NCBI GenBank assembly: GCA_964510585.1
Contig: CAZECW010000003.1
Location: 5,523 to 37,522, forward strand
DNA length: 32,000 nucleotides
Direction of reading: 5' to 3'
Origin: an uncultured archaeon
Lineage (GTDB): Archaea > Asgardarchaeota > Jordiarchaeia > Jordiarchaeales > Jordiarchaeaceae
This document shows positions 140 to 27,839 of the stretch, piece after piece. Both the position numbers and the translations under genes were made by a program. A model generated the notes under the pieces. It saw nothing but the letters and a program-made list of their open reading frames with translations, was not told the DNA's origin and made no database searches. How positions within the stretch are numbered: position 1 is the stretch's first letter; every line of letters begins with the position of its first letter.

Positions 140-784
140 TTAGTGTACCAATTCAGTTTGCCTCACACTGGTAGCTGATCTCATCGGCAGAACTACCAAG
201 TCTGTTTCGCTCATTTGTTTTGCTAATTCATTGAATAGATTGGATGGGGTGATGTGTATGCAGGTTACTTCTTTTTCAGGCACTTCGCTGGCCAGGTCGA
301 TTAATTGTTTTATTATCCACCTGGCGGTTATCACAGTGTTCATGTATTCCTCTTTTCCGTCTGCTTCCTTCTCGTAGAATTCTATTAGGGATTTCAGGTT
401 TTGTGCCTTGTAGGTGCTCGCGTTTTTAGGGTTCTCAGAGAGGAATCTTTCCAATTCTTCCTTTAATTCTTCTATTTTTTCTCTTAGGTCATCTATTTCC
501 TGTTCCAAATATAGTCGGGCGTTTTGGGGTATTCCTAATCTGAAGAGTGGAACCCCTAACTCTCTGAATTCTTCCGTATTCACGCTCTGACCGTTAACGC
601 CAAACATGCAATCTTTGTCTGCAGTGATAAAGTCGGGATGATAGGTTAGAATAACGTTTAGTAAGGAGTTATCGGCCTGTTCGGTGAAGCAATCAGAATT
701 TTTGGAAGCCTGGGAATTTCCTTCTTCATACAATACCACCGTGAGGATTTTCCCACGCAATTTTTTAATTTCCAATTCTTCCAT
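140..784 (-). CDS. Hypothetical protein (214 aa), alpha/beta domain with a central coiled-coil insert
   Basis: ORF 140..820. ATG at 784 is preferred because GGAGG lies just upstream. Heptad-like segment LEQEIDDLREKIEELKEELERFL. No family recognised with confidence. Confidence 0.8.
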   Translation of the reverse strand: MEELEIKKLRGKILTVVLYEEGNSQASKNSDCFTEQADNSLLNVILTYHPDFITADKDCMFGVNGQSVNTEEFRELGVPLFRLGIPQNARLYLEQEIDDLREKIEELKEELERFLSENPKNASTYKAQNLKSLIEFYEKEADGKEEYMNTVITARWIIKQLIDLASEVPEKEVTCIHITPSNLFNELAKQMSETDLVVLPMRSATSVRQTELVH

Positions 785-835
785 CTTTTTCCTTCCTCCA
801 TTTATTCTCTGGTTAAACAATAGAAGGATGTTAGG

Positions 836-843
836 ATTTAAAA
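836..843 (-). promoter_or_regulatory. Candidate TATA box (TTTTAAAT) for the leftward operon
   Basis: AT-rich box about 50 nt upstream of the ATG at 784; position fits an archaeal promoter with a short leader. Confidence 0.4.
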
Positions 844-872
844 CTAATCTTAACTTGTCTTTTCTGAATTAT

Positions 873-888
873 GACAATTTTAATTGTC
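873..888. promoter_or_regulatory. Palindromic operator candidate GACAATT-TT-AATTGTC (GACAA-N6-TTGTC)
   Basis: Perfect 7-bp inverted repeat; same core and spacing as the site at 1028-1047. Confidence 0.65.
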
Positions 889-1027
889 TTGAAAATTGTT
901 GTATAGTTTGAATAAAAAGAGGAAAATTCATTTTTTTTGACAATTAAATTTTATTCCAAAAATTGTCTGGCAAGTCAATTTTATTAATCCAGTTACGATA
1001 GCCATTAAGACAATAAGAATGATGTAT

Positions 1028-1047
1028 TTGACAAATATAATTGTCAA
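1028..1047. promoter_or_regulatory. Palindromic operator candidate TTGACAA-ATATAA-TTGTCAA (GACAA-N6-TTGTC)
   Basis: Perfect 7-bp inverted repeat ending 16 nt upstream of the TATA candidate at 1064; matches 873-888. Confidence 0.65.
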
Positions 1048-1063
1048 TTTTAATTTACGAAAA

Positions 1064-1073
1064 TTTTTATTAA
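1064..1073 (+). promoter_or_regulatory. Candidate TATA box (TTTTTATTAA) for the hdrA-mvhD/mvhG/mvhA operon
   Basis: About 25-30 nt upstream of TTG 1096 / GTG 1099, compatible with a leaderless or short-leader transcript. Confidence 0.45.
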
Positions 1074-1095
1074 CCAATAAACTCTCCTTGATAAA

Positions 1096-3645
1096 TTGGT
1101 GAAAAAATATAACGCAGTGACACAGATGGACTTATATAATGTTTTAGGCCACCCTCTCAGAAGAAAAATCCTCCTATTATTAGAAAAAGAGGGTTACATG
1201 CAGTACTCAGATCTTCTCAAGGAGCTCAACATTGAAACAACGGGACAGTTGAATTTTCACCTCACAAAGCTGGGGAACCTAATTACCAAAGAGGGAAAGG
1301 CTTACAAGCTCTCGGAAGAAGGAAAAACGGTCATCAAAATAATGGAGTTAAATGAGAAGATTCTCTCAGGTGAAGAGATAGAAAGAATCGAGTCTCGAAA
1401 AACTGAGTTAAGCCGCGTGGGGATACTTATCTGTACCTGTGGTTCAGAGATTGAGCAGTCAATTAGTGTTGAGGCTTTGAAGAACCGTGTGTCTCGCATA
1501 AATAATGTGGTGTCCGTTGCGGTTTTTGATAATCTTTGTCAGGAGAAGAATCAGAAGAAGATTCAGAAATGGTTTAAGGACAATTTCATAAATAAGGTGG
1601 TTATTGCTGCCTGCAGTCCTCGTACGCACTCTCATATATTTAACCGCATATTTGAGAATCTTATACCCATAACAAACATTGATTTTGCTAATATTAGGGA
1701 GCAATTATGCTGGGTGAATTCTAAAAAGCCTGTTGAAGCCTTGGAAAAAGCGGGGTTACTCATTGAGGCTGCTGTGGAGAGGGTTATCCTTCAAAGAGAG
1801 ATTAAAACCAAAACTGTTGAGGTTCAAAAAAGCGTGGCTGTTATTGGTGGGGGCATTGCGGGTATGAATTTGGCTTTAAAGTTGGCGGAGGCCGGGTTGA
1901 AAGTTTATCTTATTGAAAAGTCGCCTACTCTGGGGGGGAAGGTTGCAAGGTGGAGCAAGATTGAGGGCGTCCTAGACTGCGCATCCTGTTTCCTCTCGGA
2001 ACAGATTCTGTATTTGGTGCAGGAGAAAAATATTGAGATTCTCACCAATACTGAAATTCTATCCGTTTCTGGAAATGCGGGGAACTTCACCATTGAATTG
2101 GTTCGCAAGCCACGTTACGTGGATGAAAATAAGTGTACTGGTTGTAAACGGTGTATGAGTATATGCACTATTACTAAGAAAAACGAGTATGAGTACGGTT
2201 TGGATGAGAGGAAGCTAATCTACATTCCCTTTGTTCAGGCCTATCCTTATGCGGCGACCATAGATGAGGAGGATATTGAGAAATGTAGAGAATGCCGGGT
2301 CTGTGAAAGAGCCTGTCTAAATAAAGCCATAAATCTGGATCAGAAGCCTACAACAATGACCATAAAGGTTGGGGCAAAAGTTCTGGCAATTGGCTCCGAC
2401 CTTTACCAAGACTTAAAGCTTTATAATCATAACCCGCGTTGGGACATCGTCACCTCTGCGGAGTTTGAGAGAATTCTTGCCTCTGACGGTCCCACACAGG
2501 GCAATCTTGTAAAACTTTCTGATGGCAAGGCGCCGCAAAAAATTGTAATTATTCAGGGTGTGGGCGATTACAGTCTTAGTTCCGATTACTGTTACATACT
2601 GTCCAGAAAGTATCTAGAAGCGATTCGGGAGAAGCTTCCCAGCTGCGAAGTTAAAGTTTTTATAGAGAACAGTAAGAGCGCTGCAAATAGGTTGGCACTC
2701 GCTAACCTGCCGGAAACTGTTCATACTGGCAAAGTATTAGGGATAAAAGTGGAGGGCGAAAGGAAAGTGATAAGTACTGAGAGGGGAGACTTTGAATCAG
2801 ACATGGTTATTCTAAACATAGGTATGGTTCCAAGTAGGGAGCTGGCTGAGCTTCGCAAAACTTTGGATTTCGCTTTTGATGATAAGGGTTTTATGTCCAA
2901 AGAGACACTGAGCTCAGGGATTTTTGGGTGTGGGACTGTTACCGGGCCTAAAGATTATCACACGGCTATAGCGGAATCTAATGAAGTAGCTCTTCAAATA
3001 ATTTCTCTATTATCAAGGGATTATTTACTTGCAGACATTAGCGGTATAGATATTGACTATGATAAGTGTGGTTTATGCGGTTTGTGTATGTCTGTCTGCC
3101 CCTTTAACGCTATATCCTGTGAAGACGACAGGATTACCATTGACGATTTCAAGTGTAAGGGCTGCGGAGTCTGCGTAAGCATTTGCCCCACAAAGGCATT
3201 GGAGATGAATGTGATAACAAGAGAAAAGATTCTCAGATCCATAGAAGTTTATAGCAAGTATAGCCACAAACCCAAAATTATGGCTTTTTGCTGTGAGCAT
3301 TGCGGGTATGCGGCGGCGGATGAGGCGGGCCTAAGGAAAATACAGTACCATCCCAATATTTTCGTTGAAATGGTTCCCTGTACTGGTAGAGTGGACACCG
3401 AGTTTATTTTAAAGGCGTTGGAAAAAGGATTCGATGGGGTGCTAGTTGTAGGGTGTAAGTATGGCTCATGCAGGTACATAGATGGAATCAACAAGTTGGA
3501 GAAAAAAATCAAAATACTGAAAGATGTGGGAATTCCCCAAATAGAGGATAGACTGGTTCTTTCATCGCTAAACGCGGTGGAAGGCTACAGGTTCGCAGAG
3601 ATAGTGAACCTAATGCAGAATAAATTGTCGGAGATGATGATGTGA
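1096..3645 (+). CDS. hdrA: Fusion protein: N-terminal winged HTH (ArsR-like) + HdrA-like FAD/Fe-S protein + C-terminal MvhD [2Fe-2S] domain
   Basis: HTH: LGHPLRRKILLLL...YSDLLKEL...GQLNFHLTKL. HdrA N-domain: ICTCG, AACSPRTH, ANIREQ. FAD motif GGGIAG, DCASC, inserted ferredoxin CTGCKRCMSIC/CRECRVCERAC, GPKD, second ferredoxin CGLCGLCMSVCP/CKGCGVCVSICP. MvhD: FCCEHCGYAAAD, PCTGRVD, GCKYGSCRY. Start uncertain (1096 TTG, 1099 GTG or 1126 ATG). Confidence 0.9.
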   Translation: MVKKYNAVTQMDLYNVLGHPLRRKILLLLEKEGYMQYSDLLKELNIETTGQLNFHLTKLGNLITKEGKAYKLSEEGKTVIKIMELNEKILSGEEIERIESRKTELSRVGILICTCGSEIEQSISVEALKNRVSRINNVVSVAVFDNLCQEKNQKKIQKWFKDNFINKVVIAACSPRTHSHIFNRIFENLIPITNIDFANIREQLCWVNSKKPVEALEKAGLLIEAAVERVILQREIKTKTVEVQKSVAVIGGGIAGMNLALKLAEAGLKVYLIEKSPTLGGKVARWSKIEGVLDCASCFLSEQILYLVQEKNIEILTNTEILSVSGNAGNFTIELVRKPRYVDENKCTGCKRCMSICTITKKNEYEYGLDERKLIYIPFVQAYPYAATIDEEDIEKCRECRVCERACLNKAINLDQKPTTMTIKVGAKVLAIGSDLYQDLKLYNHNPRWDIVTSAEFERILASDGPTQGNLVKLSDGKAPQKIVIIQGVGDYSLSSDYCYILSRKYLEAIREKLPSCEVKVFIENSKSAANRLALANLPETVHTGKVLGIKVEGERKVISTERGDFESDMVILNIGMVPSRELAELRKTLDFAFDDKGFMSKETLSSGIFGCGTVTGPKDYHTAIAESNEVALQIISLLSRDYLLADISGIDIDYDKCGLCGLCMSVCPFNAISCEDDRITIDDFKCKGCGVCVSICPTKALEMNVITREKILRSIEVYSKYSHKPKIMAFCCEHCGYAAADEAGLRKIQYHPNIFVEMVPCTGRVDTEFILKALEKGFDGVLVVGCKYGSCRYIDGINKLEKKIKILKDVGIPQIEDRLVLSSLNAVEGYRFAEIVNLMQNKLSEMMM

Positions 3646-4400
3646 AACTAAAATTTTCAGCAATCTCCCTTAACTCTTGCAACGGTTGCATCTCCACCCT
3701 TACCTGTCTAGATGTTTTCCTCAACCTTGTAAAATCCGCGGAAATAGTATACTTCCCCTTTGTTGAGGACTCCTACCCCGCCACAATAAAGGAAGACGAA
3801 GAACTAAAATATTCTGACGTTACCCTTGTTGAGGGATGTGTTACCCAGAAGGATGAAGAAATATTACTGAAAAAGCTGCGAAAAGCATCCAAAAAAATAA
3901 TTGCACTCGGCGCCTGCGCTATGTTTGGGGGGATAGAAAGCCTATCACAGAATGCTCGAAGGGACCCTCTCTCTAAAATCATAGAAATCGATGGATGTAT
4001 ACCGGGTTGCCCCCCACCTGAAAATGTTCTGGGAGCATCTATACTTTCACTAATTGAGGGCAGGAATCTTCCCGAAGCAAGCAGGAATCTCTGTGCAGTT
4101 TGCGATTTGAGGCCCAAACTGGAAAAATTCAAAACAATCCGTATAGAGAAATTACAACCCCAAAAGTTTCCCACCAGCTGTTTCCTCGACGAAAACGTGC
4201 TCTGTTTAGGTCCGGTGACCCGTGAAGGATGCGATGCAAAGTGTATCAAAGTGGGGCTGCCCTGTGAGGGGTGTATGGGGCCTCCCAACGGTTTAGACTA
4301 TACTGCTAATGTAATCAACTTCCTCTCAACACTGGAATTATCAGAAAAGTTGAGAACTTATGAAGGAATTATTTTTAGGCTTCGCCGCCCAAGGACGTGA
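3642..4400 (+). CDS. mvhG: [NiFe] hydrogenase small subunit, MvhG/group 3 type
   Basis: SCNGC, EG, GACAMFGG, IPGCPP, CAVC, CFL, CLGPVTREGCDAKC, PCEGCMG; no Tat leader. GTG start overlaps the upstream TGA. Confidence 0.88.
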   Translation: MKLKFSAISLNSCNGCISTLTCLDVFLNLVKSAEIVYFPFVEDSYPATIKEDEELKYSDVTLVEGCVTQKDEEILLKKLRKASKKIIALGACAMFGGIESLSQNARRDPLSKIIEIDGCIPGCPPPENVLGASILSLIEGRNLPEASRNLCAVCDLRPKLEKFKTIRIEKLQPQKFPTSCFLDENVLCLGPVTREGCDAKCIKVGLPCEGCMGPPNGLDYTANVINFLSTLELSEKLRTYEGIIFRLRRPRT

Positions 4401-4406
4401 AATGGA

Positions 4407-5738
4407 ATGAAGAAAATTATTGAACCGGTTACAAGAATTGAGGGACACGGGAAAATAACAGTATACCTTAATGATAAGGAAGTCTCCAACGCTAATTTTG
4501 ACATGTATCTACCTCGAGGATTCGAAAAAATTTTAGTGGGAAAATTGGTGGAAGATGTTCCCAGAATCACATCCCGAATATGTGGACTCTGCTCCTCAGC
4601 ACACGCAATAGCAGCCTGCAAAGCATTGGAAAAAATATATGACGTTACCCCATCTAAATCCTCCATTCTTATGAGAAAACTCCTCCTTGCCGGAGAGCTT
4701 ATAAGATCCCATGCATTGCACTTCTTTTACTTTGCACTTCCCGACCTAAAAGCATTGATAGAAAATGATTATGAAAGGTATAGTGTCCAACAGTTCTCAA
4801 AAATAGAAACAGACCTAGTTGAAAAATTGTTCAGAGTAATTAGAATTGGAAATGAGCTCCTAGACCGCATTGGGGGAAGGGTACCCCACCCAGTAACCAG
4901 CGTAGTGGGCGGAATCTCTAAAAAATTAACAGAAAAAGAAGTGGTAGGACTACAGTCTAACCTTAGAAGAGGCGCCAGCACAGTGAGAGGAATAATAGAG
5001 AAACTATTAGAGTACATGGGTAAGATTGGTGAGCCGCAAGAATTCTTCAACATGGACGAAACAGCATTTATGGCACTAAATGAAGGCGGCAACTTCAACC
5101 TATATGAAGGAAAACTCCGCATCACCAAAGAAAAAAAGATTCTGGCAGACTTCGAACCAGAACAATACACCAAATACATAGAAATTGAGAAAAAATCACA
5201 GGGAATCCAAATTAAACTTAACGGAGAAAAGCTAGTATTAACCGGGCCCATGGCCAGAAACCAAATAATCGAGAGATACGGGGCCTACGAAGTACACAGC
5301 TTGATGGAAGAAGTGCCCACCAGCTGGAAGGAAAGCCTTCTTTACTCAAACTTTCTCAGACTCATAGAAATACTTGCCTCGATATACGATGCAATACTCA
5401 TACTCAACGAGCCAGAACTAATGGAAGAACGAGAACTTCCCCAACTCAACAAAATCGCCACACCAATAGGCATCGGAGTGGTAGAAGCACCCAGAGGAAC
5501 ACTAATACACCAGTACAAAGTAAACACTAAAAACACAGTTGAATCAGCAACCATCATCACCCCCACAGAACTCAACCTCCCCACCATCAACCAAAAATTA
5601 CTAGAAACATGCAGAGACAGCTACCAAAACACACAAAACATAGAGAAACTAAAAGAAAACGCAAAAAGAGTCATAAGAACATTCGACCCCTGCGTCTCAT
5701 GCGCAACCCACCTAATCGTCAAAATAATCCACCAATAA
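4407..5738 (+). CDS. mvhA: [NiFe] hydrogenase large subunit, MvhA/group 3c-like
   Basis: TRIEGHG, L1 RICGLCSSAH, EAPRGTLIH, L2 DPCVSCATH plus an 8-aa C-terminal extension. The subgroup call rests on the adjacent MvhD and HdrA domains. Confidence 0.9.
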   Translation: MKKIIEPVTRIEGHGKITVYLNDKEVSNANFDMYLPRGFEKILVGKLVEDVPRITSRICGLCSSAHAIAACKALEKIYDVTPSKSSILMRKLLLAGELIRSHALHFFYFALPDLKALIENDYERYSVQQFSKIETDLVEKLFRVIRIGNELLDRIGGRVPHPVTSVVGGISKKLTEKEVVGLQSNLRRGASTVRGIIEKLLEYMGKIGEPQEFFNMDETAFMALNEGGNFNLYEGKLRITKEKKILADFEPEQYTKYIEIEKKSQGIQIKLNGEKLVLTGPMARNQIIERYGAYEVHSLMEEVPTSWKESLLYSNFLRLIEILASIYDAILILNEPELMEERELPQLNKIATPIGIGVVEAPRGTLIHQYKVNTKNTVESATIITPTELNLPTINQKLLETCRDSYQNTQNIEKLKENAKRVIRTFDPCVSCATHLIVKIIHQ

Positions 5739-6033
5739 AATAACCACAGAAAGATTTCATCTCAAACAATGACACCTCAAAACACTTTTAAGATGGAAAA
5801 AATAAAAATTCAAGCATCCAAGACGGACACCAGCACCTCCAAGGCTTATGCAGCTTTATGCGTAACAGTATGGAGAGAGCTTGAGGTCCTCGGTAAAATA
5901 CGCTATTTGGTCTATAACGAAGTGAAATTCAAATTCAACACAAGCCTACATCGAACAAAATATTACATAATTAGTTATTTCGATATTGTCTTTTATACAA
6001 AGGTTTATTTTTTATTTCCACGAAAAGAAGGTT

Positions 6034-8370
6034 ATGATAACGAATCCTGATGAGTATTTGTTGAGGAGTGATAAGTGGTTCGTAGGTGGAGGAACCGCTG
6101 CTTTATGGGCTCCCTGTTTCCCGCTACATCTCGATACCTTAGGGTTTTGGGATTATGGCTACTACCTAGATCAGAAACTTCCACACATATTCACGATAAC
6201 CGTGTTAGATGAGCAGTTAAATCCTATAAACTTTAACGTAATTGAGCGAGTTTGGAGACCAAGCAGTCTCTCTCAGAAGTTCGTGGCTGAAGACCTTAGC
6301 ATTGAGGAGAACAAACTTCTAACACCTACCAATGTGTTTGTTTCCCAAATGGATGTAGTAAACAATGGGAACAAGGATAAGCGTTATCACTTCATAATGT
6401 GGACAAAGCTGGATCGTAGACCCCCGAAACTAATGCCCATCAGATTAACTTACCCATTTGACTATGAAGGACTGACCTATACTAATCCTAAAATTATAAA
6501 TAATACTGCTGTTTTTTCTCAGGAGGAGCTACATACAAACAGTGAATGCAATTACCAAGTGTGGTACGCCCTGGGAGCAAAGGAAAAACTGGATTCTTAC
6601 ACCATAAATTTAAGTGAAAATTTCCACATCAGCCTGGGCTCTCTAGAAGACCGACCACTATGGATAGTTACCCCCTTCCCAGAGAAGATTTCTGATGGAA
6701 AATTTAAGAATGAGGATATTCCTGAAAAACCTTTTAGCGAGTTTGGTAGCATCTATGTGGGCCTCCATTACACCATTGACCTGCAGCCAGAGTTCCACAA
6801 ATATACTTGGTTTGCTTGCAGCGTGTCCCATGATAAGGACAAGTGTTTAAATAATCTTAAAGAACTTCAAGACAAGGATCCTCTTAAATTAAGCCGGCAG
6901 AACTGGAAAGATTTTTTCAACAGTGTACCAAGCTTCGAGTGCTCAGACCCTTATATCACCAAATATTATTGGTACCGCTGGTACGGTTTAAAACTAAACA
7001 TGATAAATGTTGGCGAAAATAACCACAAGTATCCTATCATATATGAGGGGATAGGGGAGAGAGATGGAGGCTGGTTCCGACACCATATTTCATACAGTGC
7101 CCAGTGTCACATGATTGAGTGCTCCTGGATGCATGAACCCTTAGTGGCGAAGGGTTCATTGCTTGGACTTCTATCAAATATCCATAAAAACGGAGCAATA
7201 CCTGGGGGAGTGGGTTTCAAGGGAAAAACAGATGACTGGTTCATCTATCATGCAAATTATGCAAAGGGAATTTTACAAATATACCAGATACACCCCGATA
7301 TTCAATTTTTTGAACAGATTTATCAGCCTCTCGCCAAGTACGCTAAATATTTCGACAGGCAGCGAGACCAGGAGAATAGTAGTCTTTACGATGTAACTCA
7401 GCAGTACGAAACTGGTCAAGAGTATAATGCACGCTACCTGTTTGCCGAAGAAAATGCTGATAGGGATGTTACGTTTAGGCTAAAAGGTATCGACGCTACA
7501 ACTTATATTTACGAGTTAAAGAAACTCTTAGCGTTTATGGCGCAGGCGCTGGGGAAAAAGGAGGAGAGTGAAAGGTGGGCTGTTGAGGCTAAAAAAATTA
7601 AGGAGAATATTTTAAAGTTTATGTGGAATCCGGAGGAACAGTTCTTCTTTGATGTGAAACCAGAAACCTTTGAACCTTCAAATGTCAAGGCAGCAGTTTG
7701 TTTCTATCCCTTTATGACCGATATAGTGGATTCTAAGCACTTAGGCGCTATATACAAACATCTCTTAAATCCAGAAGAGTTTTGGACTTCCTATCCGGTG
7801 GCCACACTTGGCAAAGACCATCCTCTTTTTAATCCTGAGGCCGAATGGAAGGGAATTCGAAAATACTGTCCTTGGAATGGCCGAGTCTGGCCTATGACCA
7901 ACAGCCACATATGTGACGTTCTGGCACGAACCGCTTACCACATAGATAACTCTCTTAAAAGCAAGACGGCCCAATTTCTAAACAAATTTATTCGAATGAT
8001 GTTCTTCCAAGAGAATCCAGAATTACCAAATTGCTATGAGCACTACAATCCCTTTACAGGTTACCCCAGCAGCTACAGGGGCGTTGACGACTATATGCAT
8101 TCCTGGATTGTTGATTTAATCATAAAATATATAGTGGGGTTCCAGCCTCAAACGGAAAACGAGGTGGTTCTCGACCCACTACCATTCGACCTTGAATACT
8201 TCACCCTCAACAACTTGCTCTATAAGGGACACAAAATAAAAGTCACATGGAGAAGGAAAAAAATTGACAAAGAAAAAGAAGGATTCTGCCTCTACATTGA
8301 CAATAGACTAGTAGCTAAGAAAACACAACTTGAAAAAATTAGATTAAAATTAAATAATCAAAAACAATAG
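6034..8370 (+). CDS. Glycoside hydrolase, GH63/MGH1-like (alpha/alpha)6-barrel family (778 aa)
   Basis: ETGQEYNARY, GIDATTY, FFFDV, EEFWTSYPVATL, WNGRVWPMTN, YEHYNPFTG. ATG 6034 preferred over 5986 (GAAGGT just upstream). Substrate unknown. Confidence 0.7.
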   Translation: MITNPDEYLLRSDKWFVGGGTAALWAPCFPLHLDTLGFWDYGYYLDQKLPHIFTITVLDEQLNPINFNVIERVWRPSSLSQKFVAEDLSIEENKLLTPTNVFVSQMDVVNNGNKDKRYHFIMWTKLDRRPPKLMPIRLTYPFDYEGLTYTNPKIINNTAVFSQEELHTNSECNYQVWYALGAKEKLDSYTINLSENFHISLGSLEDRPLWIVTPFPEKISDGKFKNEDIPEKPFSEFGSIYVGLHYTIDLQPEFHKYTWFACSVSHDKDKCLNNLKELQDKDPLKLSRQNWKDFFNSVPSFECSDPYITKYYWYRWYGLKLNMINVGENNHKYPIIYEGIGERDGGWFRHHISYSAQCHMIECSWMHEPLVAKGSLLGLLSNIHKNGAIPGGVGFKGKTDDWFIYHANYAKGILQIYQIHPDIQFFEQIYQPLAKYAKYFDRQRDQENSSLYDVTQQYETGQEYNARYLFAEENADRDVTFRLKGIDATTYIYELKKLLAFMAQALGKKEESERWAVEAKKIKENILKFMWNPEEQFFFDVKPETFEPSNVKAAVCFYPFMTDIVDSKHLGAIYKHLLNPEEFWTSYPVATLGKDHPLFNPEAEWKGIRKYCPWNGRVWPMTNSHICDVLARTAYHIDNSLKSKTAQFLNKFIRMMFFQENPELPNCYEHYNPFTGYPSSYRGVDDYMHSWIVDLIIKYIVGFQPQTENEVVLDPLPFDLEYFTLNNLLYKGHKIKVTWRRKKIDKEKEGFCLYIDNRLVAKKTQLEKIRLKLNNQKQ

Positions 8371-8558: not shown

Positions 8559-11264
8559 TTATGTTGGGAAGGCTGTTTTTATTTCTTCGTAGAGTTCGGG
8601 GAAGCTGTTTAACCATTCTTTTCTTTCTTTTTTGAGTTGTTGAACCATTTCTTCTATTTGCTCAATGCTGTACCACCTTTCTAGTTTAAATTTTTCCATG
8701 TCTACGCCTTCCACCTCTTTGGGCACTAATGTGCCGAAGTATGGTTCGGGTATCCACTCTATGTTGTTTCTGGCTATGCCTCGGATTATGGAGGCCATTT
8801 CTTTTATCTGGATTCGTTCCACTTTTCTCTTAATTATGCTTATTCCTTCTTCATTTACTTCTCTAAGTTCTCCCACTCCACCGGTGTTTATAAGGTAGCA
8901 CTGCACCTTGTCTCCCAGTCCTTTTAGTATTTCGTAGAACCTGTTTCCCTCTTGGCCTTTGCTTCCCACTATGAAGGGATTTGTTCCTACTTCGCGTACT
9001 GACTGTCCTGCTCTTTTGGGGTCGCTTCCCGAACTTTCAATTGATTCTCCAAGCATGAATGCGGCTGCGGCTTGTTCAATGGTTAGTTTGGATGCTATTG
9101 GTACTACGGTGTTTCTTCTGGTAATCATTAGGACTATTAGTCCGTCGACGTCTTTTAGGGGAGGGAGGTTAACTGAGGGGCTTTTGTACTTTCCAAAGTC
9201 GTCTCTCTGCATTATTCCGCGTCCGTTGCCTGTGAGTATGTCGCTTTCAAATAGCACGTTTCCCTTGTAGTCCACCATAACGTTTTCCAGTATAGCGCTG
9301 GGTTTGGTCACCGCATTGTAGATTAGGGGCTGTATTTCTGGGTTTAGGTCTTCTGTTTTTAGGTAGAATCCTCTCTCGGTTCCTAGGGCTGAGCCGTCTG
9401 GTCTTAGTGCTACGAAGTCGTCTTGTACTATTTCGATTCCCTCACCATCTGCTTCGTTAAGGTCGTGGGTGTGGCAGCTGTGGGTGGTTTTACCTGTTGC
9501 GGTGAGTCCGAATATTAGCGTATTGTACGTTTTTATTTTTCCCGTTTTGGCATCTCTTGCTCTTATGATTTTTGCTCCGGCGTGTAATCCGAGCATTCCC
9601 TGCTGTTTGGCGAACCACATGGCCATTCTCAAGAAGCCCTTTTTAGCCTCGCCGTAATAGTCGGTTCCCAGAATGAATGTTACTCCAATTTCTGGAAATA
9701 CTATTATTTGTCGGTCCTTTTCCTGCCATTCTGGAATGTAAACTATGTATAGGTGGGGGCCGTTATAGTTTTCTTTTGGGTCGAATAGTGTTTGGTTGAC
9801 CATGTGGGCCAGCCTAATCATTTCTCCCCTGTGTACGGAGACGTAGAGGGTGCATCTGGGTGTGAAGTAGGGGTTATCTCCCATGGTGCGGTCAGTGCAC
9901 ACAAATGGTGCGCTCTTAATGTATTGGAGGACGTCGCTCATTGTTTTGGGTAGGTTTTTCATAAGTTCCTTCTGTTTGGGGCTCATCTCGTATTGGACTA
10001 CTTCTGGGCTTCCCACGATTATGGTTAGGCCTGCGCTTCTGTTTTTCACGGTGGAGACGAAATTATAGTTGTTGAACTTTGTTTTGGTGCCATAGGCTTC
10101 CGCCATCTCCCTGATTTTTTGTTCTGATAGGTGTTTAACATTGCTTCTATTGTAGAGCTTTTCCACGGCTTGCCTTATTTCGTTTAGGTCTATTTGGGAG
10201 ATGATTTCGTCAATTTCGGCTTTTGCCCTCTCCTTTTCTTCTATTAATGGTTCGAGATATTCTTTGGTGGTAATTATTCTTCTTACTTCCTTTTGCATTT
10301 CCAAAAGGGGATGGGCTAAATTCAGGTAGTATACCGCTGCGAATTTGAAAATATTCTTGTAAAATTCAATTTCAAGCTTTTCTCGCTTACTGCTCCGTAC
10401 CATTAGGTAGGGATTGAAGAATGGCTGCTGGGAATGTGTGAGAATCTTTATGGCTTCCTGTGGGGTGAGACGCTTAGCAATTCTTGGATCCTTGCGATAA
10501 TTTACAAGTAGAAAAATGAGCTTAATACGGGTGGTGTCCACATATTTTTCATTTCCACCTATCCACCAAGGGTCGAGCATAAAGTGGTTATTTTCCTTTT
10601 TGCTTTTTTCGTATAGTGCCTGGAGTCTTGGATAAATTTTTATGAGTTCTTTTTTTAGGAAGAATTTTCTCTCAGAGACCGATGTAGATATGCGCCCCTT
10701 TTCTCCACCAAGTTGCTCCACATATATTATGTCGTCTGAGTGTATTCTGGCTCTATCCATCTCTAAAAGGAGGAATGCATTTGTGCTGACTCCCCGCCCA
10801 GTTTCACCCATGAAGGCTACGCCCTCACCATTAATGTCTACCAGACTACCCCTCAGAAAGTTTAATCTCTCCTGTTCCTCGCAGACATCAGCAACAATCC
10901 CTAGGGCTAATGCCCGAACAAATTCATAGTTTCCAATATTGAATACTATTCCTGTTTTGGTTTCAGAGTTGTAATATATTCCGGGAGGCTCGTCGTAAAG
11001 TCCAGTAGCTGCATATATTACTCCGTGGGGGCGAAGGTTGCGGTCTATGGCTGCGGGGAACCAGTTTTCTCTCCAAAAATCATCTAAATGGGGTTCGTTG
11101 GTTCTCAATTGAATTATGTAGCCGTTTATGTTTGCGTTCCAAACGTAAATAGAATCGTAACCCATATGCCTCTCTGCTTTTTGAACCAATTCTTCCCTTT
11201 TCTCACGAGAGATTCCTACGTCGATAACGCCTTTCTTTCCGGGAACCTGCTCCATTTCAACCAT
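8559..11264 (-). CDS. pckA: Phosphoenolpyruvate carboxykinase (ATP-type) with an extra N-terminal HPr-kinase/PEPCK-like domain
   Basis: C-terminal part: GTDYYGEAKKG, GLHAGAK, P-loop FGLTATGKTT, QDD, TERGFYLKT, ENV, NGR, YLINTG. Start 11264 chosen from GAGGAG spacing (ORF is open from 11306). Confidence 0.85.
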   Translation of the reverse strand: MVEMEQVPGKKGVIDVGISREKREELVQKAERHMGYDSIYVWNANINGYIIQLRTNEPHLDDFWRENWFPAAIDRNLRPHGVIYAATGLYDEPPGIYYNSETKTGIVFNIGNYEFVRALALGIVADVCEEQERLNFLRGSLVDINGEGVAFMGETGRGVSTNAFLLLEMDRARIHSDDIIYVEQLGGEKGRISTSVSERKFFLKKELIKIYPRLQALYEKSKKENNHFMLDPWWIGGNEKYVDTTRIKLIFLLVNYRKDPRIAKRLTPQEAIKILTHSQQPFFNPYLMVRSSKREKLEIEFYKNIFKFAAVYYLNLAHPLLEMQKEVRRIITTKEYLEPLIEEKERAKAEIDEIISQIDLNEIRQAVEKLYNRSNVKHLSEQKIREMAEAYGTKTKFNNYNFVSTVKNRSAGLTIIVGSPEVVQYEMSPKQKELMKNLPKTMSDVLQYIKSAPFVCTDRTMGDNPYFTPRCTLYVSVHRGEMIRLAHMVNQTLFDPKENYNGPHLYIVYIPEWQEKDRQIIVFPEIGVTFILGTDYYGEAKKGFLRMAMWFAKQQGMLGLHAGAKIIRARDAKTGKIKTYNTLIFGLTATGKTTHSCHTHDLNEADGEGIEIVQDDFVALRPDGSALGTERGFYLKTEDLNPEIQPLIYNAVTKPSAILENVMVDYKGNVLFESDILTGNGRGIMQRDDFGKYKSPSVNLPPLKDVDGLIVLMITRRNTVVPIASKLTIEQAAAAFMLGESIESSGSDPKRAGQSVREVGTNPFIVGSKGQEGNRFYEILKGLGDKVQCYLINTGGVGELREVNEEGISIIKRKVERIQIKEMASIIRGIARNNIEWIPEPYFGTLVPKEVEGVDMEKFKLERWYSIEQIEEMVQQLKKERKEWLNSFPELYEEIKTAFPT

Positions 11265-11527
11265 TCTCATTACTCCTCGGACAGGACATCCTAGCCCACA
11301 AGTCAATACGTTTTTTTTCAGATACCAAGTTAACTACACCTTTTTATAGGTTTTCATTGTATGGCTGTTAGGGTCTCGAAGGTAGGCATTTATTTGTTAA
11401 AAATGATTCTAATTTACCGCCATTTTTATCTTTTTATGTTAAAATTAAGGTTTCGGGTATTATTTTTATACTTCTTTGTTCAATTCTAATATTGCCCTTG
11501 CAAAATTTTTCCAGTGACCCTAAAGGA

Positions 11528-25087: not shown

Positions 25088-26305
25088 TCAAATTTTAAAC
25101 AAGTCCACTATGTCCAAAACTGGTATGCCCTCTTTTTCTGCCACTAAGCGCAGGTTGTTCTCACAGAAGGGGCACACAGTCACAATATAATCTACTCCCA
25201 CCTCTTTTGCGTCCTCCACCCTCACCCGCGCAATTTTTTCAGCGAGATTCGGGAACGCTGATTTTACCCCTCCACCCGCTCCACAGCACCAAGCAGCGGT
25301 TCGATTACGTTTCATCTCAATAAACTCTAAGCCGGGCACCTTTTTTATTATTTCGCGAGGCGGCTCATAAAAATCGCAGTGACGACCAAGGTGGCAAGGA
25401 TCATGATAGGTTACTTTCCTATTTTTGAAATCCTCCCTAAATTCCAGCTTCCCCTCCGCCAGTAGTCGATTTAGAATTTCGGTTATGTGAACCACCTTGA
25501 AGGGCAACTCTTTTCCGTAAATATCGGGATAGTCTTTTTTGAGGGTCCGATAGCATCCTGCACAGTGAACAACCACCTCTTTTGCACCAGCGTCTTGTAA
25601 CGCCTTTATATTATGTAAGGCAAGCTCCTCTGCCAGGCTACGCATACCCGTTCTAAGCGCTACTGAGCCGCAGCAGTACTCTTCAGGATGTATCAAAGCA
25701 GGCCGCACCCCCGCAGAGAGCAGTAGCTTTATAGTTTTTCGGATGATTTCTGGTTGCCTGTAAGGTTCGGTGCACCCCATAAAGAACACAAGCTCGCCCC
25801 TAGACGGCAAATCAACCCCCTCCGGCATCCAGACAATCCTATCCTTATGCAGTTCCATGTAGGGATTATGCTCCTTTTTGCACCACTCCAAAATTTCCCT
25901 GTGTCGAGTCATAGGCCCGTAACCCGCATCAACCAAGTCAGCCCTCAACGCCTCGTAAATCTTGGTGTGATCCAAATATTTTCCTATGCTAAGGTTAATA
26001 TTTGGATCCATAGATTGGTGGCATGTTGCGTGGCAGTCTCCACACGTAGTGCACTGGTATATAACGTTGGCTAATTCCTGGCTGAGCTTCAGTCTTCCCT
26101 CGATGAGCCCGCGCACTATCTGCATTTTTCCACGTGCAAAGAAGGGCTCGAAACCTGGAGTGTGTTCCAGCACTGGGCAAACCTTGTATCTGCCAACAGT
26201 GTATCTCACCGCAATGCGGCAGTCACCGCAGGCAATGCAGCCATATAAGATGTCTCCTAGTTTTTTGAGGTGTCTCAGTTTCCCGATTTCTTGAGTATTA
26301 GTCAT
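25088..26305 (-). CDS. Fe-S oxidoreductase subunit with two CCG domains (HdrD/GlcF/GlpC-like)
   Basis: CIACGDC...CP, CTTCGDCHATC, FFMGC, CCGS, CAGC, YHDPCHLGR, CCGAGGG, VCPFC. Confidence 0.9.
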   Translation of the reverse strand: MTNTQEIGKLRHLKKLGDILYGCIACGDCRIAVRYTVGRYKVCPVLEHTPGFEPFFARGKMQIVRGLIEGRLKLSQELANVIYQCTTCGDCHATCHQSMDPNINLSIGKYLDHTKIYEALRADLVDAGYGPMTRHREILEWCKKEHNPYMELHKDRIVWMPEGVDLPSRGELVFFMGCTEPYRQPEIIRKTIKLLLSAGVRPALIHPEEYCCGSVALRTGMRSLAEELALHNIKALQDAGAKEVVVHCAGCYRTLKKDYPDIYGKELPFKVVHITEILNRLLAEGKLEFREDFKNRKVTYHDPCHLGRHCDFYEPPREIIKKVPGLEFIEMKRNRTAAWCCGAGGGVKSAFPNLAEKIARVRVEDAKEVGVDYIVTVCPFCENNLRLVAEKEGIPVLDIVDLFKI

Positions 26306-26306
26306 T

Positions 26307-27809
26307 TTACTCCTCCTCTGCGCTGTAGAAGTGGAATTTTCCCGGACTCAAAAGAAAATTGGGGTCAAGGGTTCTCTTCACATCTTTAAAGAATTTGGTA
26401 AACTTGGGTGGAAAGGCATTTGCCTCCATTATGGCTTGACTTATGACTTCTCCCAGCCAGTAGTGTACTCCACCATATTTCACTTGGAAGCGTAGCCTCT
26501 CCTTCCACAGCTTTAGGTTGGTCTCTCTCATTTCGGGCTTGTTCCAACCACTCATCCCTCCCACGATTACACACTCTCCCCTAGGCATCATATACACCAC
26601 GGCTGCAGTGACTGAGGCAACTGTGGCGCTTGAATACTCCCCCAGCTTTTGCAGAGTATGCTCATCAGATGTTCTAAAGACTTCAGGCATCTGGTCTAAG
26701 GGAACCTTGTGACAAGTGGTGCAACTGAAGTGGCCCGGAAGCACACCAAACACTCCATGAAAATACTGCCAATGCCCCTGCTTTTTCCCCACCCACTCCG
26801 CAATGTTTCCCTCCCTGATGGTGGGGCCGAGTTCCGTAACACCCGGCTTTGCAAATTCTTCGTGGACAATGTCACTTGCCAATTCAAACATCCTCTCATC
26901 ATCAGCCTCAATTCCCACCAACATCACTGGTTTCATCAGCAACATATCCTTCCAAGGCTTAATAACATCAGTCAAAGAATAAAGCATAACTACAGCAGAG
27001 GGAGTCAAAGTAATATCAGAAATCCCCCAACTGCACTTACACTGAAGCGAATGGGTAACCTTAACGACGAACTCATAGTCCTCAGGCACAGTAAACGTGA
27101 ATCCCTCTCTGTACTCAGGTAGCGGATAAATCTTCATCACCGCCTTGGTTTTAATACCCATAGTACCCACGTCACCCATAAAAAGACCCGTAAAATCTGG
27201 CCCCATACCCCACCTGGTAAACGGTTTCTTCACATACCTGCTCGAACCAGAACCAGTAACTATGACGTCGCCATCCGGATTTGGAAGAACCACTTCTACG
27301 CCTATGCAGTTTTCAGAAACCGGACCGTACTTCGTTGATCCAAAACCAATAGTGTTATTTGAAAGTCCACCACCAATAGTGGCACTCATACCAGAACCCG
27401 GCCCCTCCACACCAGTGGTATAACCTCTCTTGTGAAGGAACTCTATAAGTTCCCCCCAAGTAATGCCACACTCCACTACAACATTTCCAACATCTTCATT
27501 TATTTCAACCACTCTATTCATACGTGTAAGATCGATGACGATGCCTCCCTCCACTATTGGTTTTGAACCGCCGACAAGGTCTGCTCCTCCGCCCCTGGGA
27601 ACCATTGGAATTTTATATTTGTTCGCTACTCTAACAATGTGTGAAACCTCCTCTGTTGTTCCCGGGCGCACAACTATATCCGGCCAACGGTCAGGCAAAG
27701 CGGGATCCACATTTCGGGAGTAGGCTTGTCTAACAAAATCTTGGTTAGAGACGTAATCCGCTCCCAACACATCTTCCAGTTCCCTATACGCCTTTTCTGT
27801 AGCTGACAA
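26307..27809 (-). CDS. FAD-binding oxidoreductase (VAO/PCMH-GlcD superfamily)
   Basis: PDIVVRPGTTEEV, PRGGGADLVGG, IDLTRMNRV, ATIGG, GVEVVLP, GTMGIKT, DPNFLLSPGK. TTG 27809 follows GGAGGT. Confidence 0.88.
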   Translation of the reverse strand: MSATEKAYRELEDVLGADYVSNQDFVRQAYSRNVDPALPDRWPDIVVRPGTTEEVSHIVRVANKYKIPMVPRGGGADLVGGSKPIVEGGIVIDLTRMNRVVEINEDVGNVVVECGITWGELIEFLHKRGYTTGVEGPGSGMSATIGGGLSNNTIGFGSTKYGPVSENCIGVEVVLPNPDGDVIVTGSGSSRYVKKPFTRWGMGPDFTGLFMGDVGTMGIKTKAVMKIYPLPEYREGFTFTVPEDYEFVVKVTHSLQCKCSWGISDITLTPSAVVMLYSLTDVIKPWKDMLLMKPVMLVGIEADDERMFELASDIVHEEFAKPGVTELGPTIREGNIAEWVGKKQGHWQYFHGVFGVLPGHFSCTTCHKVPLDQMPEVFRTSDEHTLQKLGEYSSATVASVTAAVVYMMPRGECVIVGGMSGWNKPEMRETNLKLWKERLRFQVKYGGVHYWLGEVISQAIMEANAFPPKFTKFFKDVKRTLDPNFLLSPGKFHFYSAEEE

Positions 27810-27839
27810 AAAGTTTACCTCCAAAAATTTGATTCAAAT

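Follow-up and report, generated by a model that had tools for sequence, protein, structure and literature searches.

Bifunctional proteins that are both enzyme and regulator, such as RbkR, PutA, and BirA, are known as trigger enzymes. PutA from enteric bacteria, the closest redox-switched flavoenzyme and repressor, has an N-terminal DNA-binding domain with which it autoregulates a divergent promoter, and the redox state of its flavin switches it off DNA; the domain is a ribbon-helix-helix, the protein moves to the membrane when reduced, and it is a bacterial protein with neither a hydrogenase nor an iron-sulfur (Fe-S) chain. Known regulatory [NiFe] hydrogenases, i.e., those of groups 2b and 2c, signal via separate partners, a histidine kinase or cyclase plus a response regulator. 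Here, we analyzed a stretch of 32,000 nucleotides (nt; the window) of contig CAZECW010000003.1, assembly GCA_964510585.1, from a hot-spring Jordarchaeum genome of 3.78 Mb. The first gene of a [NiFe] hydrogenase operon in this window encodes an ArsR-like winged helix-turn-helix (wHTH) fused to an HdrA-MvhD body and is followed by mvhG and mvhA. The domain, its conservation, a palindromic operator, and gene co-occurrence make a dedicated, enzyme-tethered autoregulator a well-supported reading, and the enzyme probably also controls its own genes along with a linked carbon-fixation gene. We give a probability of about 60% to the whole explanation, that of an enzyme-tethered local autoregulator of the hydrogenase operon and of an operon with a methylene-tetrahydromethanopterin (H4MPT) dehydrogenase (Mtd).

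Comparison with described systems

The closest validated archaeal analogue is RbkR, a riboflavin kinase with an N-terminal winged helix that binds palindromes at its own and pathway genes and is tuned by cytidine triphosphate (CTP) and flavin mononucleotide (FMN) (PMC5397151). Its regulon was reconstructed by comparative genomics first, and validation came after (PMC5397151). The Jordarchaeum protein has in common with RbkR, and with trigger enzymes in general, that the enzyme and the DNA-binding domain, here also an N-terminal winged helix, are in one chain, with putative operators, palindromes defined computationally, at its own and pathway genes. RbkR is a small soluble kinase, whereas here the winged helix sits on a subunit of ~740 amino acids (aa) with flavin adenine dinucleotide (FAD) and Fe-S sites, which is part of a multi-subunit [NiFe] hydrogenase complex, and a signal, if there is one, would consist of electrons or conformation and not of a small ligand.

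On the enzyme side, the subunit families and the Cys pair between MvhD and FAD are shared with MvhADG-HdrABC of methanogens (PDB 5ODC, 8RVU, 9SW2-6; PMC13580544). In contrast to that complex, HdrBC is missing here, MvhD is fused, a winged helix is added, and no heterodisulfide chemistry is evident; as the possible acceptor side, there is an FrhB-like protein in some lineages, and the Mtd fusion is genetically linked. In the methanogen Mvh-Hdr complexes, the HdrA N-terminal domain is part of a 'mobile arm' that rotates in turnover, and MvhD also belongs to this arm (PMC13580544). The HdrA core and the C-terminal MvhD are likewise found in HdrA2 of Methanosarcina and in other HdrA-MvhD fusions; when compared with HdrA2, our protein has an extra winged helix, is coupled to mvhGA with no hdrB2C2 neighbors, and is without one of the [4Fe-4S] sites, which was lost. 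As in groups 2b and 2c, the hydrogenase is a candidate for being wholly or partly dedicated to transcription control, but here the hydrogenase-associated subunit carries the DNA-binding domain itself, the enzyme belongs to the Mvh/Vhu type, and profile searches of the operon and window genes did not find an operon-encoded kinase or cyclase. Among enzyme-regulators, a hydrogenase-associated HdrA subunit with a DNA-binding domain of its own is new. The initial annotation of this DNA knew of no description of the architecture, and, in agreement, full-text searching, with subscription papers outside its reach, found no account of a winged helix on HdrA. The architecture itself is not rare: at least 120 full-length relatives came up in a protein search, and it is present in hundreds of public Asgard proteins from metagenome-assembled genomes.

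One gene encodes the winged helix, HdrA, and MvhD

The open reading frame (ORF) map showed a single and unbroken frame on the plus strand, from 1096 to 3645. This part of the initial annotation, which had proposed one 849-aa ORF, was upheld, but not its start at TTG 1096, which is ruled out by the ortholog starts. In 27 of the 30 loci compared, the protein begins at the residue matching M11 (MDIYSIL...), in most cases with a stop codon just 5', and ATG 1126 is therefore the preferred start. The resulting protein has 839 aa, the length of its database copy, P0004; this numbering is used below unless the 849-aa frame is indicated. The gene is laid out as follows:

1126..1365, plus strand: ArsR-like wHTH (DUF7347), aa 1-80, from Pfam, PDB profile, AlphaFold2 (AF2), Foldseek, and dimer prediction.
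1366..1416, plus strand: charged linker, aa 81-97, with a low predicted local distance difference test (pLDDT) score, the least conserved segment.
1417..3261, plus strand: HdrA-like core with N-terminal Fe-S, FAD/thioredoxin-reductase-like, and inserted plus C-terminal ferredoxin domains, from HdrA2 and 8rvu.
3262..3645, plus strand: MvhD/FlpD domain, aa 713-839, plus the stop codon, from PF02662 and PDB MvhD chains.

This order of winged helix, charged linker, HdrA-like core, and MvhD in one chain had been read from the bare sequence, and the profile searches, run on the 849-aa frame, agreed with it. Pfam placed the DUF7347 winged helix (PF24038) at aa 12-82 (44.5 bits, cut-off 27.6) and FlpD/MvhD (PF02662) at aa 728-847 (114.5 bits, cut-off 22.3), and detected FAD and ferredoxin motifs. 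The best family match in NCBIfam was HdrA2 (NF040770), with 582 bits over aa 107-847, which does not reach the equivalog cut-off of 1100. An internal start giving a separate HdrA was ruled out: the orthologs are unbroken, with the linker in frame in each of them.

The junction at 1340-1420, for which the initial annotation had raised the possibility of an assembly chimera, is bridged without joints by contigs from four other hot-spring runs belonging to four studies, two of them (X2 and X3) with 0 differences and two (X4 and X5) with ~97% identity. These contigs, along with the same fusion in hundreds of independent assemblies, rule out a chimera. The relatives found in the protein search are 54-91% identical, nearly all have PF24038, and come from metagenome-assembled genomes of Jord-, Hel-, Loki-, Thor-, Hermod-, Hod-, and Odinarchaeota, where they are auto-named 'hydrogenase iron-sulfur subunit' or 'FAD-dependent oxidoreductase'. 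A six-frame search of the phylum found the fusion in ~115 of 400 Asgard genomes, in eight families and at 37-100% identity. This count is a lower bound, as two candidates were scored per genome; a genome was included if the match began at query residue 12 or before or was cut by a contig end. The remaining genomes had HdrA paralogs only, aligning from about residue 100. In every locus long enough, mvhG and mvhA were directly 3' of the fusion gene. An ortholog of 825 aa with the same DUF7347-HdrA-MvhD layout, and with mvhG and mvhA downstream, was found in Bathyarchaeia, on contigs of up to ~1 Mb; in this locus (L096-L099:1-9443), the fusion directly follows a diaphorase-like module that consists of NuoE/NuoF/NuoG-like genes and a gene for a long Oxidored_q6 protein. 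The architecture search that had been suggested with the initial annotation thus places the fusion far beyond one assembly, and, judged by these comparisons, the fusion is genuine and old.

The winged helix resembles ArsR-type DNA-binding domains

In the genome-wide profile search, the fusion protein matched DUF7347 with 49.5 bits, and a profile of the domain searched against PDB returned ArsR/SmtB-type regulators only (1y0u at 2e-7; ArsR, PagR, SmtB, HlyU, and Phr). The AF2 model of the domain (pLDDT 90) has helices at residues 3-7, 10-22, 27-33, 39-52, and 64-81 and strands at 53-56 and 59-62. The order of these elements, α1-α2-α3-αR-β1-β2-α5, is that of the ArsR-type fold, with β1 and β2 as the wing. 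Nearly all of the top 50 Foldseek neighbors were winged-helix DNA-binding proteins, mostly transcription regulators, with TM-scores of 0.54-0.72, and they included CadC, YodB, ArsR, a NolR-DNA complex, and HlyU, at 0.56-0.72, as well as SqrR.

An eroded recognition helix in the homologs had been named beforehand as an observation that would speak against DNA binding. The helix, TGQLNFHL(KKL), is intact: residues G40, N43, H45, and L46 are invariant in 53 sequences of 38-88% identity, and the full TGQLNFHLKKL is kept in the Loki-type and closer families. Over 50 orthologs, the winged helix had a mean pairwise identity of 0.60, compared with 0.54-0.57 in the N-terminal, FAD, and MvhD domains and 0.61 in the C-terminal ferredoxin domain; the linker was lowest, with 0.45. 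The winged helix is, then, at least as conserved as most catalytic domains.

When two copies of aa 1-97 were modeled together, the homodimer had an interaction prediction score from aligned errors (ipSAE) of 0.40, compared with 0.01 for the best control. Of the proteins solved as pairs of one chain, 21 of 30 reached this mark, as against none of 23 solved as single chains. Three runs agreed in 100% of the contacts, with a partner pLDDT of at least 82, and the predicted interface is made by residues 1-13 and 68-83 (α1/α5), as in ArsR dimers. Since the geometry is that of ArsR dimers, the result may partly reflect likeness to solved dimers.

There is no Cys within aa 1-97 of the protein sequence, and its His residues are limited to H9 of the HPxR motif and H45 of the HL motif; a metal or thiol sensing site (Cys/His of the α3N or α5 type) was not found in this segment. 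The domain is not a metal-sensing ArsR, and any sensing by the winged helix would run via its fused partner. In the full-length model (pLDDT 85.7), linker residues 84-94 scored below 50, suggesting that the module is on a flexible tether. Stand-alone relatives of the winged helix are common, with 969 matches, mostly of 90-450 aa. By all these comparisons, the winged helix is a complete, conserved DNA-binding module, the binding itself being predicted.

Putative palindromic operators in the divergent control region

The hydrogenase operon is separated from a divergent operon by a control region with the following elements:

785..1125, 341 nt: divergent control region, flanked by the unk226/Mtd-fusion operon on the minus strand and the wHTH-hdrA-mvhD operon on the plus strand, from the ORF map, ortholog starts, and conserved islands in three Jordarchaeum species.
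872..889: putative operator O1, TGACAATTTTAATTGTCT, with the GACAA-N6-TTGTC core at 873-888, one of two genomic sites.
1029..1046: putative operator O2, TGACAAATATAATTGTCA, with the core at 1030-1045, the only perfect TGAYAA-N6-TTRTCA 18-mer of the genome.
855-859 (TTGTC), 939-943 (GACAA), 963-967 (TTGTC), and 1009-1013 (GACAA): extra half-sites, read from the sequence.
1058..1073, plus strand: putative B recognition element (BRE)/TATA of the hydrogenase operon, CGAAAATTTTTATTAA, in a block conserved in the three species and assigned by consensus.
836..843, minus strand: putative TATA of the divergent operon, TTTTAAAT on the minus strand, in the conserved block GGATTTAAAACTAATC.

The sequence GACAA-N6-TTGTC occurs exactly twice in the 3.78-Mb genome, and both sites are in this promoter, 157 bp apart. 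The two palindromes listed in the initial annotation are real, at 873-888 and 1030-1045, and are the sole sites of this kind. O1 has one mismatch to TGAYAA-N6-TTRTCA, and O2 is kept at -96 in the three Jordarchaeum species (L013-L015) and ends 11 nt 5' of the putative BRE/TATA. In these species, the half-sites are invariant and the spacers variable, and when reads were mapped to the region, the half-sites were free of strain variants among those listed for it. Three of the extra half-sites (855-859, 939-943, and 1009-1013) are in blocks conserved in the three species, and that at 963-967 is altered in L015.

The same kind of site was found upstream of the orthologs. GAYAA-N6-TTRTC gave 17 matches in 30 upstream segments of 300 nt, versus 0.08 in shuffled sequences, and the flanking T/A, which is outside the search pattern, was conserved at 84% in 60 sites. 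The consensus TGAYAA-N6-TTRTCA is found again at orthologous operons whose proteins are as little as 37% identical. In the families with 37-40% identity, it was located at -56 and -575, or at -142, with another site ~40 nt past mvhA. Among the matches listed for genomes G187, G148, and G107, in the case of G187 part of the total, the tight cluster of sites is at this locus. In Loki-type loci with an inserted frhB-like gene, the site pair, 145-169 bp apart, is at about -1320/-1490, upstream of the inserted gene. Because the pair stays 5' of this gene, the operator appears to follow the promoter and not the coding sequence.

A broad regulon was not supported, as the other 11 degenerate sites of this genome are mostly inside ORFs, and likewise in G107. 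The genome site search found no operator of this type near the canonical Mvh cluster on contig C20. One single degenerate site, GATAAAAATGTTTATC, is at G000:C27:42380 (L094:2081-2096), between an operon for a corrinoid-protein/URO-D (MtaA-like) methyltransferase and a divergent small gene. This site, single and weak, is within chance expectation, although it could mark a weak extra target.

The putative operator accompanies a linked Mtd-fusion operon

The divergent operon starts with a gene of unassigned family and includes a dehydrogenase fusion:

140..784, minus strand: unk226, 226 aa, family unassigned, first gene of the divergent operon.
G000:C3:3948-5630 (= L063:3948-5630), minus strand, outside the window: 560-aa fusion of an unk226-type domain and an MtdA/B-like methylene-H4MPT dehydrogenase (Mpt_N).

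In most lineages, the unk226/Mtd-fusion pair and the hydrogenase operon are linked. The pair is divergently upstream in families f1, f20, and f21 and directly downstream of mvhA in f14 and f31, where the post-mvhA palindrome is ~100 nt before the start of the pair. The Mtd fusion was found in 144 of 400 genomes of the phylum, largely in families with the winged-helix fusion, and within the genus, four genomes had both the operon and the Mtd fusion, and two, one of them a complete single contig, had neither. When genomes without the winged helix were searched, none of six loci (f2, n = 3; f4, n = 2; f19, n = 1) had a site within 1.5 kb upstream of the Mtd fusion.

Two genomes have the winged helix next to Mtd in another form. 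In G357 (L071:2719-4695, plus strand), a 658-aa protein has the same winged helix and linker (…AKDQIMSGK…) joined directly to the Mtd fusion. In the related genome G342 (L072), a 90-aa winged-helix ORF (4643-4915, minus strand) ends 4 nt before the Mtd-fusion gene (2941-4638, minus strand), which could be a frameshifted fusion or a real split. These loci suggest that the winged helix stays with its regulon even without HdrA and the hydrogenase.

The G357 protein also bears on whether the enzyme body has any influence on the winged helix. If it had none, the winged helix would bind DNA for dosage or stoichiometry feedback, or would sense only assembly or Fe-S loading. Such signal-blind autoregulation would suit an operator located in the protein's own promoter and a disordered linker with no predicted contact between winged helix and body. 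The persistence of the winged helix on a different enzyme, Mtd, points the same way, as its function would not need HdrA specifically. However, the domain has been fused at the same position through the whole family history, in two phyla, although stand-alone relatives are at hand. In addition, PutA, an enzyme-regulator fusion too, is ligand- or redox-modulated. Modulation of this kind is what known fusions display, e.g., RbkR (PMC5397151). We thus consider signal-blind autoregulation unlikely.

Several observations weigh against the proposed operator and its reader. The site counts make the statistics look better than they are, since related genomes are not independent of each other, and the negative set for the Mtd fusion is small, with six loci from three families. 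Some orthologous loci have one-mismatch sites only, and four loci (L020, L026, L052, and L053) lack a site even at one or two mismatches. The strict operator was not found at the wHTH-Mtd loci L071 and L072. At the Bathyarchaeia ortholog, the Asgard-type operator was not found either, and the only palindrome was ATATTG-N6-CAATAT at -363; the four loci available from this group are near-identical, making footprinting impossible.

Orthologous loci without a strict site, that of Bathyarchaeia among them, are what would be expected if the palindromes belonged to another, unlinked transcription factor, and the winged helix were a structural, dimerization, or docking module; winged helices can indeed act as protein-protein modules. 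Nevertheless, the conservation of the recognition helix and wing equals that of the catalytic domains, these loci share no other conserved DNA-binding gene, and Mtd-fusion promoters lack the operator where the winged helix is absent. Moreover, the predicted dimer has ArsR geometry, and the half-site spacing suits a winged-helix dimer. An unlinked factor is, in our view, very improbable, and it is likely that this winged helix, and not another factor, binds the operator.

The hydrogenase and the HdrA-MvhD body

The two genes that follow the fusion gene encode the hydrogenase subunits:

3642..4400, plus strand: mvhG, [NiFe]-hydrogenase small subunit, PF01058 (Oxidored_q6), VhuG best match.
4407..5738, plus strand: mvhA, [NiFe]-hydrogenase large subunit, PF00374, VhuA best match, with active-site motifs.

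mvhG starts with a GTG at 3642, overlapping the fusion-gene stop codon (ATGTGA), with a GGAG 9 nt 5', and the ATG of mvhA at 4407 is 6 nt past the mvhG stop. MvhA keeps RIEGHG, RICGLCSSAH (RxCGxC), and DPCVSCATH (DPCxxCxxH), with eight residues beyond the latter. The translational coupling to intact MvhG and MvhA described in the initial annotation was thus borne out. The assignment to the Mvh/Vhu type, putatively group 3c, comes from best matches (VhuA, 192 bits; VhuG, 110 bits), both far under the equivalog cut-offs.

The absence of hdrB and hdrC, also noted at the outset, was confirmed for the surroundings of the operon, as neither gene was found adjoining it among the window ORFs or in profile searches. 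The sole CCG-domain (HdrD/GlpC-like) gene of the window is 20 kb off, at 25088-26305 (minus strand), and is paired with an FAD_binding_4 (GlcD-like) gene. The pair, which spans 25088-27824 (minus strand), looks like a lactate/glycolate-oxidase-type unit by its domains and not like an operon partner. Elsewhere in the genome, there are 67 CCG-domain matches in roughly 35 genes, an unusually large set.

The HdrA core aligns with PDB HdrA 8rvu at an E-value of 1e-114. The GGGIAG motif (FAD), the four N-terminal Cys (C103, C105, C138, and C163), the Cys of the two 2x[4Fe-4S] ferredoxin domains (C337-347, C387-397, C648-658, and C677-687, with C680 nearly so), and the MvhD Cys (C723, C726, C752, C777, and C782) are invariant. 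The pair C285/C288 is also invariant; its DCASC aligns with DCSMC of HdrA, and it is the counterpart of Cys202/205 of M. marburgensis, which lies between the MvhD [2Fe-2S] and FAD (PMC13580544). The [4Fe-4S] motif of the thioredoxin-reductase-like domain (CVGSR...C..CC) is altered: QGVGDYSLSSDYCYILS (aa 477-498, window 2554-2620) retains one of the four Cys. This motif is absent in the Loki-type families f20 and f21 and intact in f14, f28, and f31, suggesting that the fusion predates the loss of the cluster.

The genome has two further [NiFe] large subunits, one of them in a canonical mvhD-mvhG-mvhA cluster:

G000:C20:67531-70078 and C20:73264-73977: second mvhD-mvhG-mvhA-type cluster, with CCG-domain genes nearby.

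With this cluster and a third large subunit, the winged-helix copy is an additional one and may have a mainly sensory role. In many Loki-type loci, an FrhB/FdhB-like gene (PF04432, PF04422) is located between the operator pair and the fusion gene (L059:3288-4409; L056-L062), which suggests a further electron-transfer subunit of the complex. This gene is absent from our window.

Carried to its end, a sensory role would mean that the complex is no longer a metabolic enzyme and works as a dedicated one-component H2 sensor that, analogous to group 2b, regulates itself as well as the Mtd operon. This is the proposal of the initial annotation in its strong form. The extra copy fits with this, and so do the lack of adjacent hdrBC, the thioredoxin-reductase-domain motif reduced to one Cys and lost in Loki-type families, and the local regulon. 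Yet the other cofactor motifs (FAD, N-terminal, four ferredoxin clusters, the Cys pair, MvhD, and Ni-Fe) are invariant over 37-100% identity, older lineages retain the thioredoxin-reductase-domain cluster, and the FrhB-like subunit, co-transcribed in many loci, suggests a catalytic electron outlet. Furthermore, known regulatory hydrogenases lack the C-terminal extension after DPCxxCxxH of the large subunit, and MvhA has kept it. We therefore regard a pure sensor as quite improbable.

Downstream of the operon, after a gap of 250 nt, there is a gene for a 794-aa MGH1-like/GH63-type glycoside hydrolase (5986-8370, plus strand), which is not kept with the operon in other lineages. Another gene, at 8559-11306 (minus strand), encodes a 915-aa protein with an ATP-dependent phosphoenolpyruvate carboxykinase (ATP-PEPCK) at aa 385-870 and ~380 N-terminal residues without a Pfam match.

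A model for an enzyme-tethered regulator

In the model that we favor, the enzyme-tethered autoregulator, the first gene of the operon would encode a two-in-one protein. Its HdrA-MvhD body would take electrons from the MvhAG [NiFe] hydrogenase, and its first 80 residues would be an ArsR-type winged-helix module on a flexible tether of ~17 residues. Two modules would pair via α1 and α5 and read TGAYAA-N6-TTRTCA, whose half-sites are one helical turn apart. O2, just 5' of the BRE/TATA of its own operon, would serve the hydrogenase genes, and O1 likewise the divergent unk226/Mtd-fusion operon. Because operators sit at both promoters, the protein would be a local regulator dedicated to the hydrogenase and to a Wood-Ljungdahl-pathway dehydrogenase. 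The initial annotation had proposed a transcription factor, and the conserved helix and the operator at its own promoter are in line with a subunit that binds DNA and regulates itself; the regulon, as read here, has in addition the Mtd-fusion operon, which had gone unmentioned.

The site upstream of the BRE/TATA hints at activation as the mode of regulation. As the winged helix itself lacks Cys and metal sites and hangs on the HdrA N-terminal domain, the counterpart of a mobile-arm domain, the most likely signal would be either the redox or turnover state of the complex (H2, ferredoxin) or its state of assembly, and turnover or redox changes could shift the reach or spacing of the two modules. 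That a redox or H2 signal controls DNA binding is a tentative proposal, with a chance that we put somewhat short of even. The strongest version, in which the working hydrogenase/flavoprotein complex is itself the transcription factor and the swing of the mobile arm moves two winged helices on and off the palindrome with no separate sensor, is rather doubtful.

Implications for hydrogen metabolism in Asgard archaea

Hydrogen metabolism is central to the supposed lifestyle of Asgard archaea and to syntrophy models of the origin of eukaryotes, and, to our knowledge, almost nothing is known about its regulation in these organisms. The locus offers a conserved, dedicated candidate regulator, a defined 18-bp putative operator, and a predicted two-operon regulon that couples a hydrogenase and a methylene-H4MPT dehydrogenase, all of which can be tested with a 97-residue domain and 340 bp of DNA. 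If binding follows the redox state, the protein would be the first one-component sensor of H2 or redox state to be built on a hydrogenase complex, as well as a natural read-out of the conformational cycle of HdrA-type electron bifurcation. If the complex is the transcription factor, Asgard archaea and Bathyarchaeia would read H2 and ferredoxin directly with the catalytic machine and, in this way, set the expression of both the hydrogenase and the dehydrogenase.

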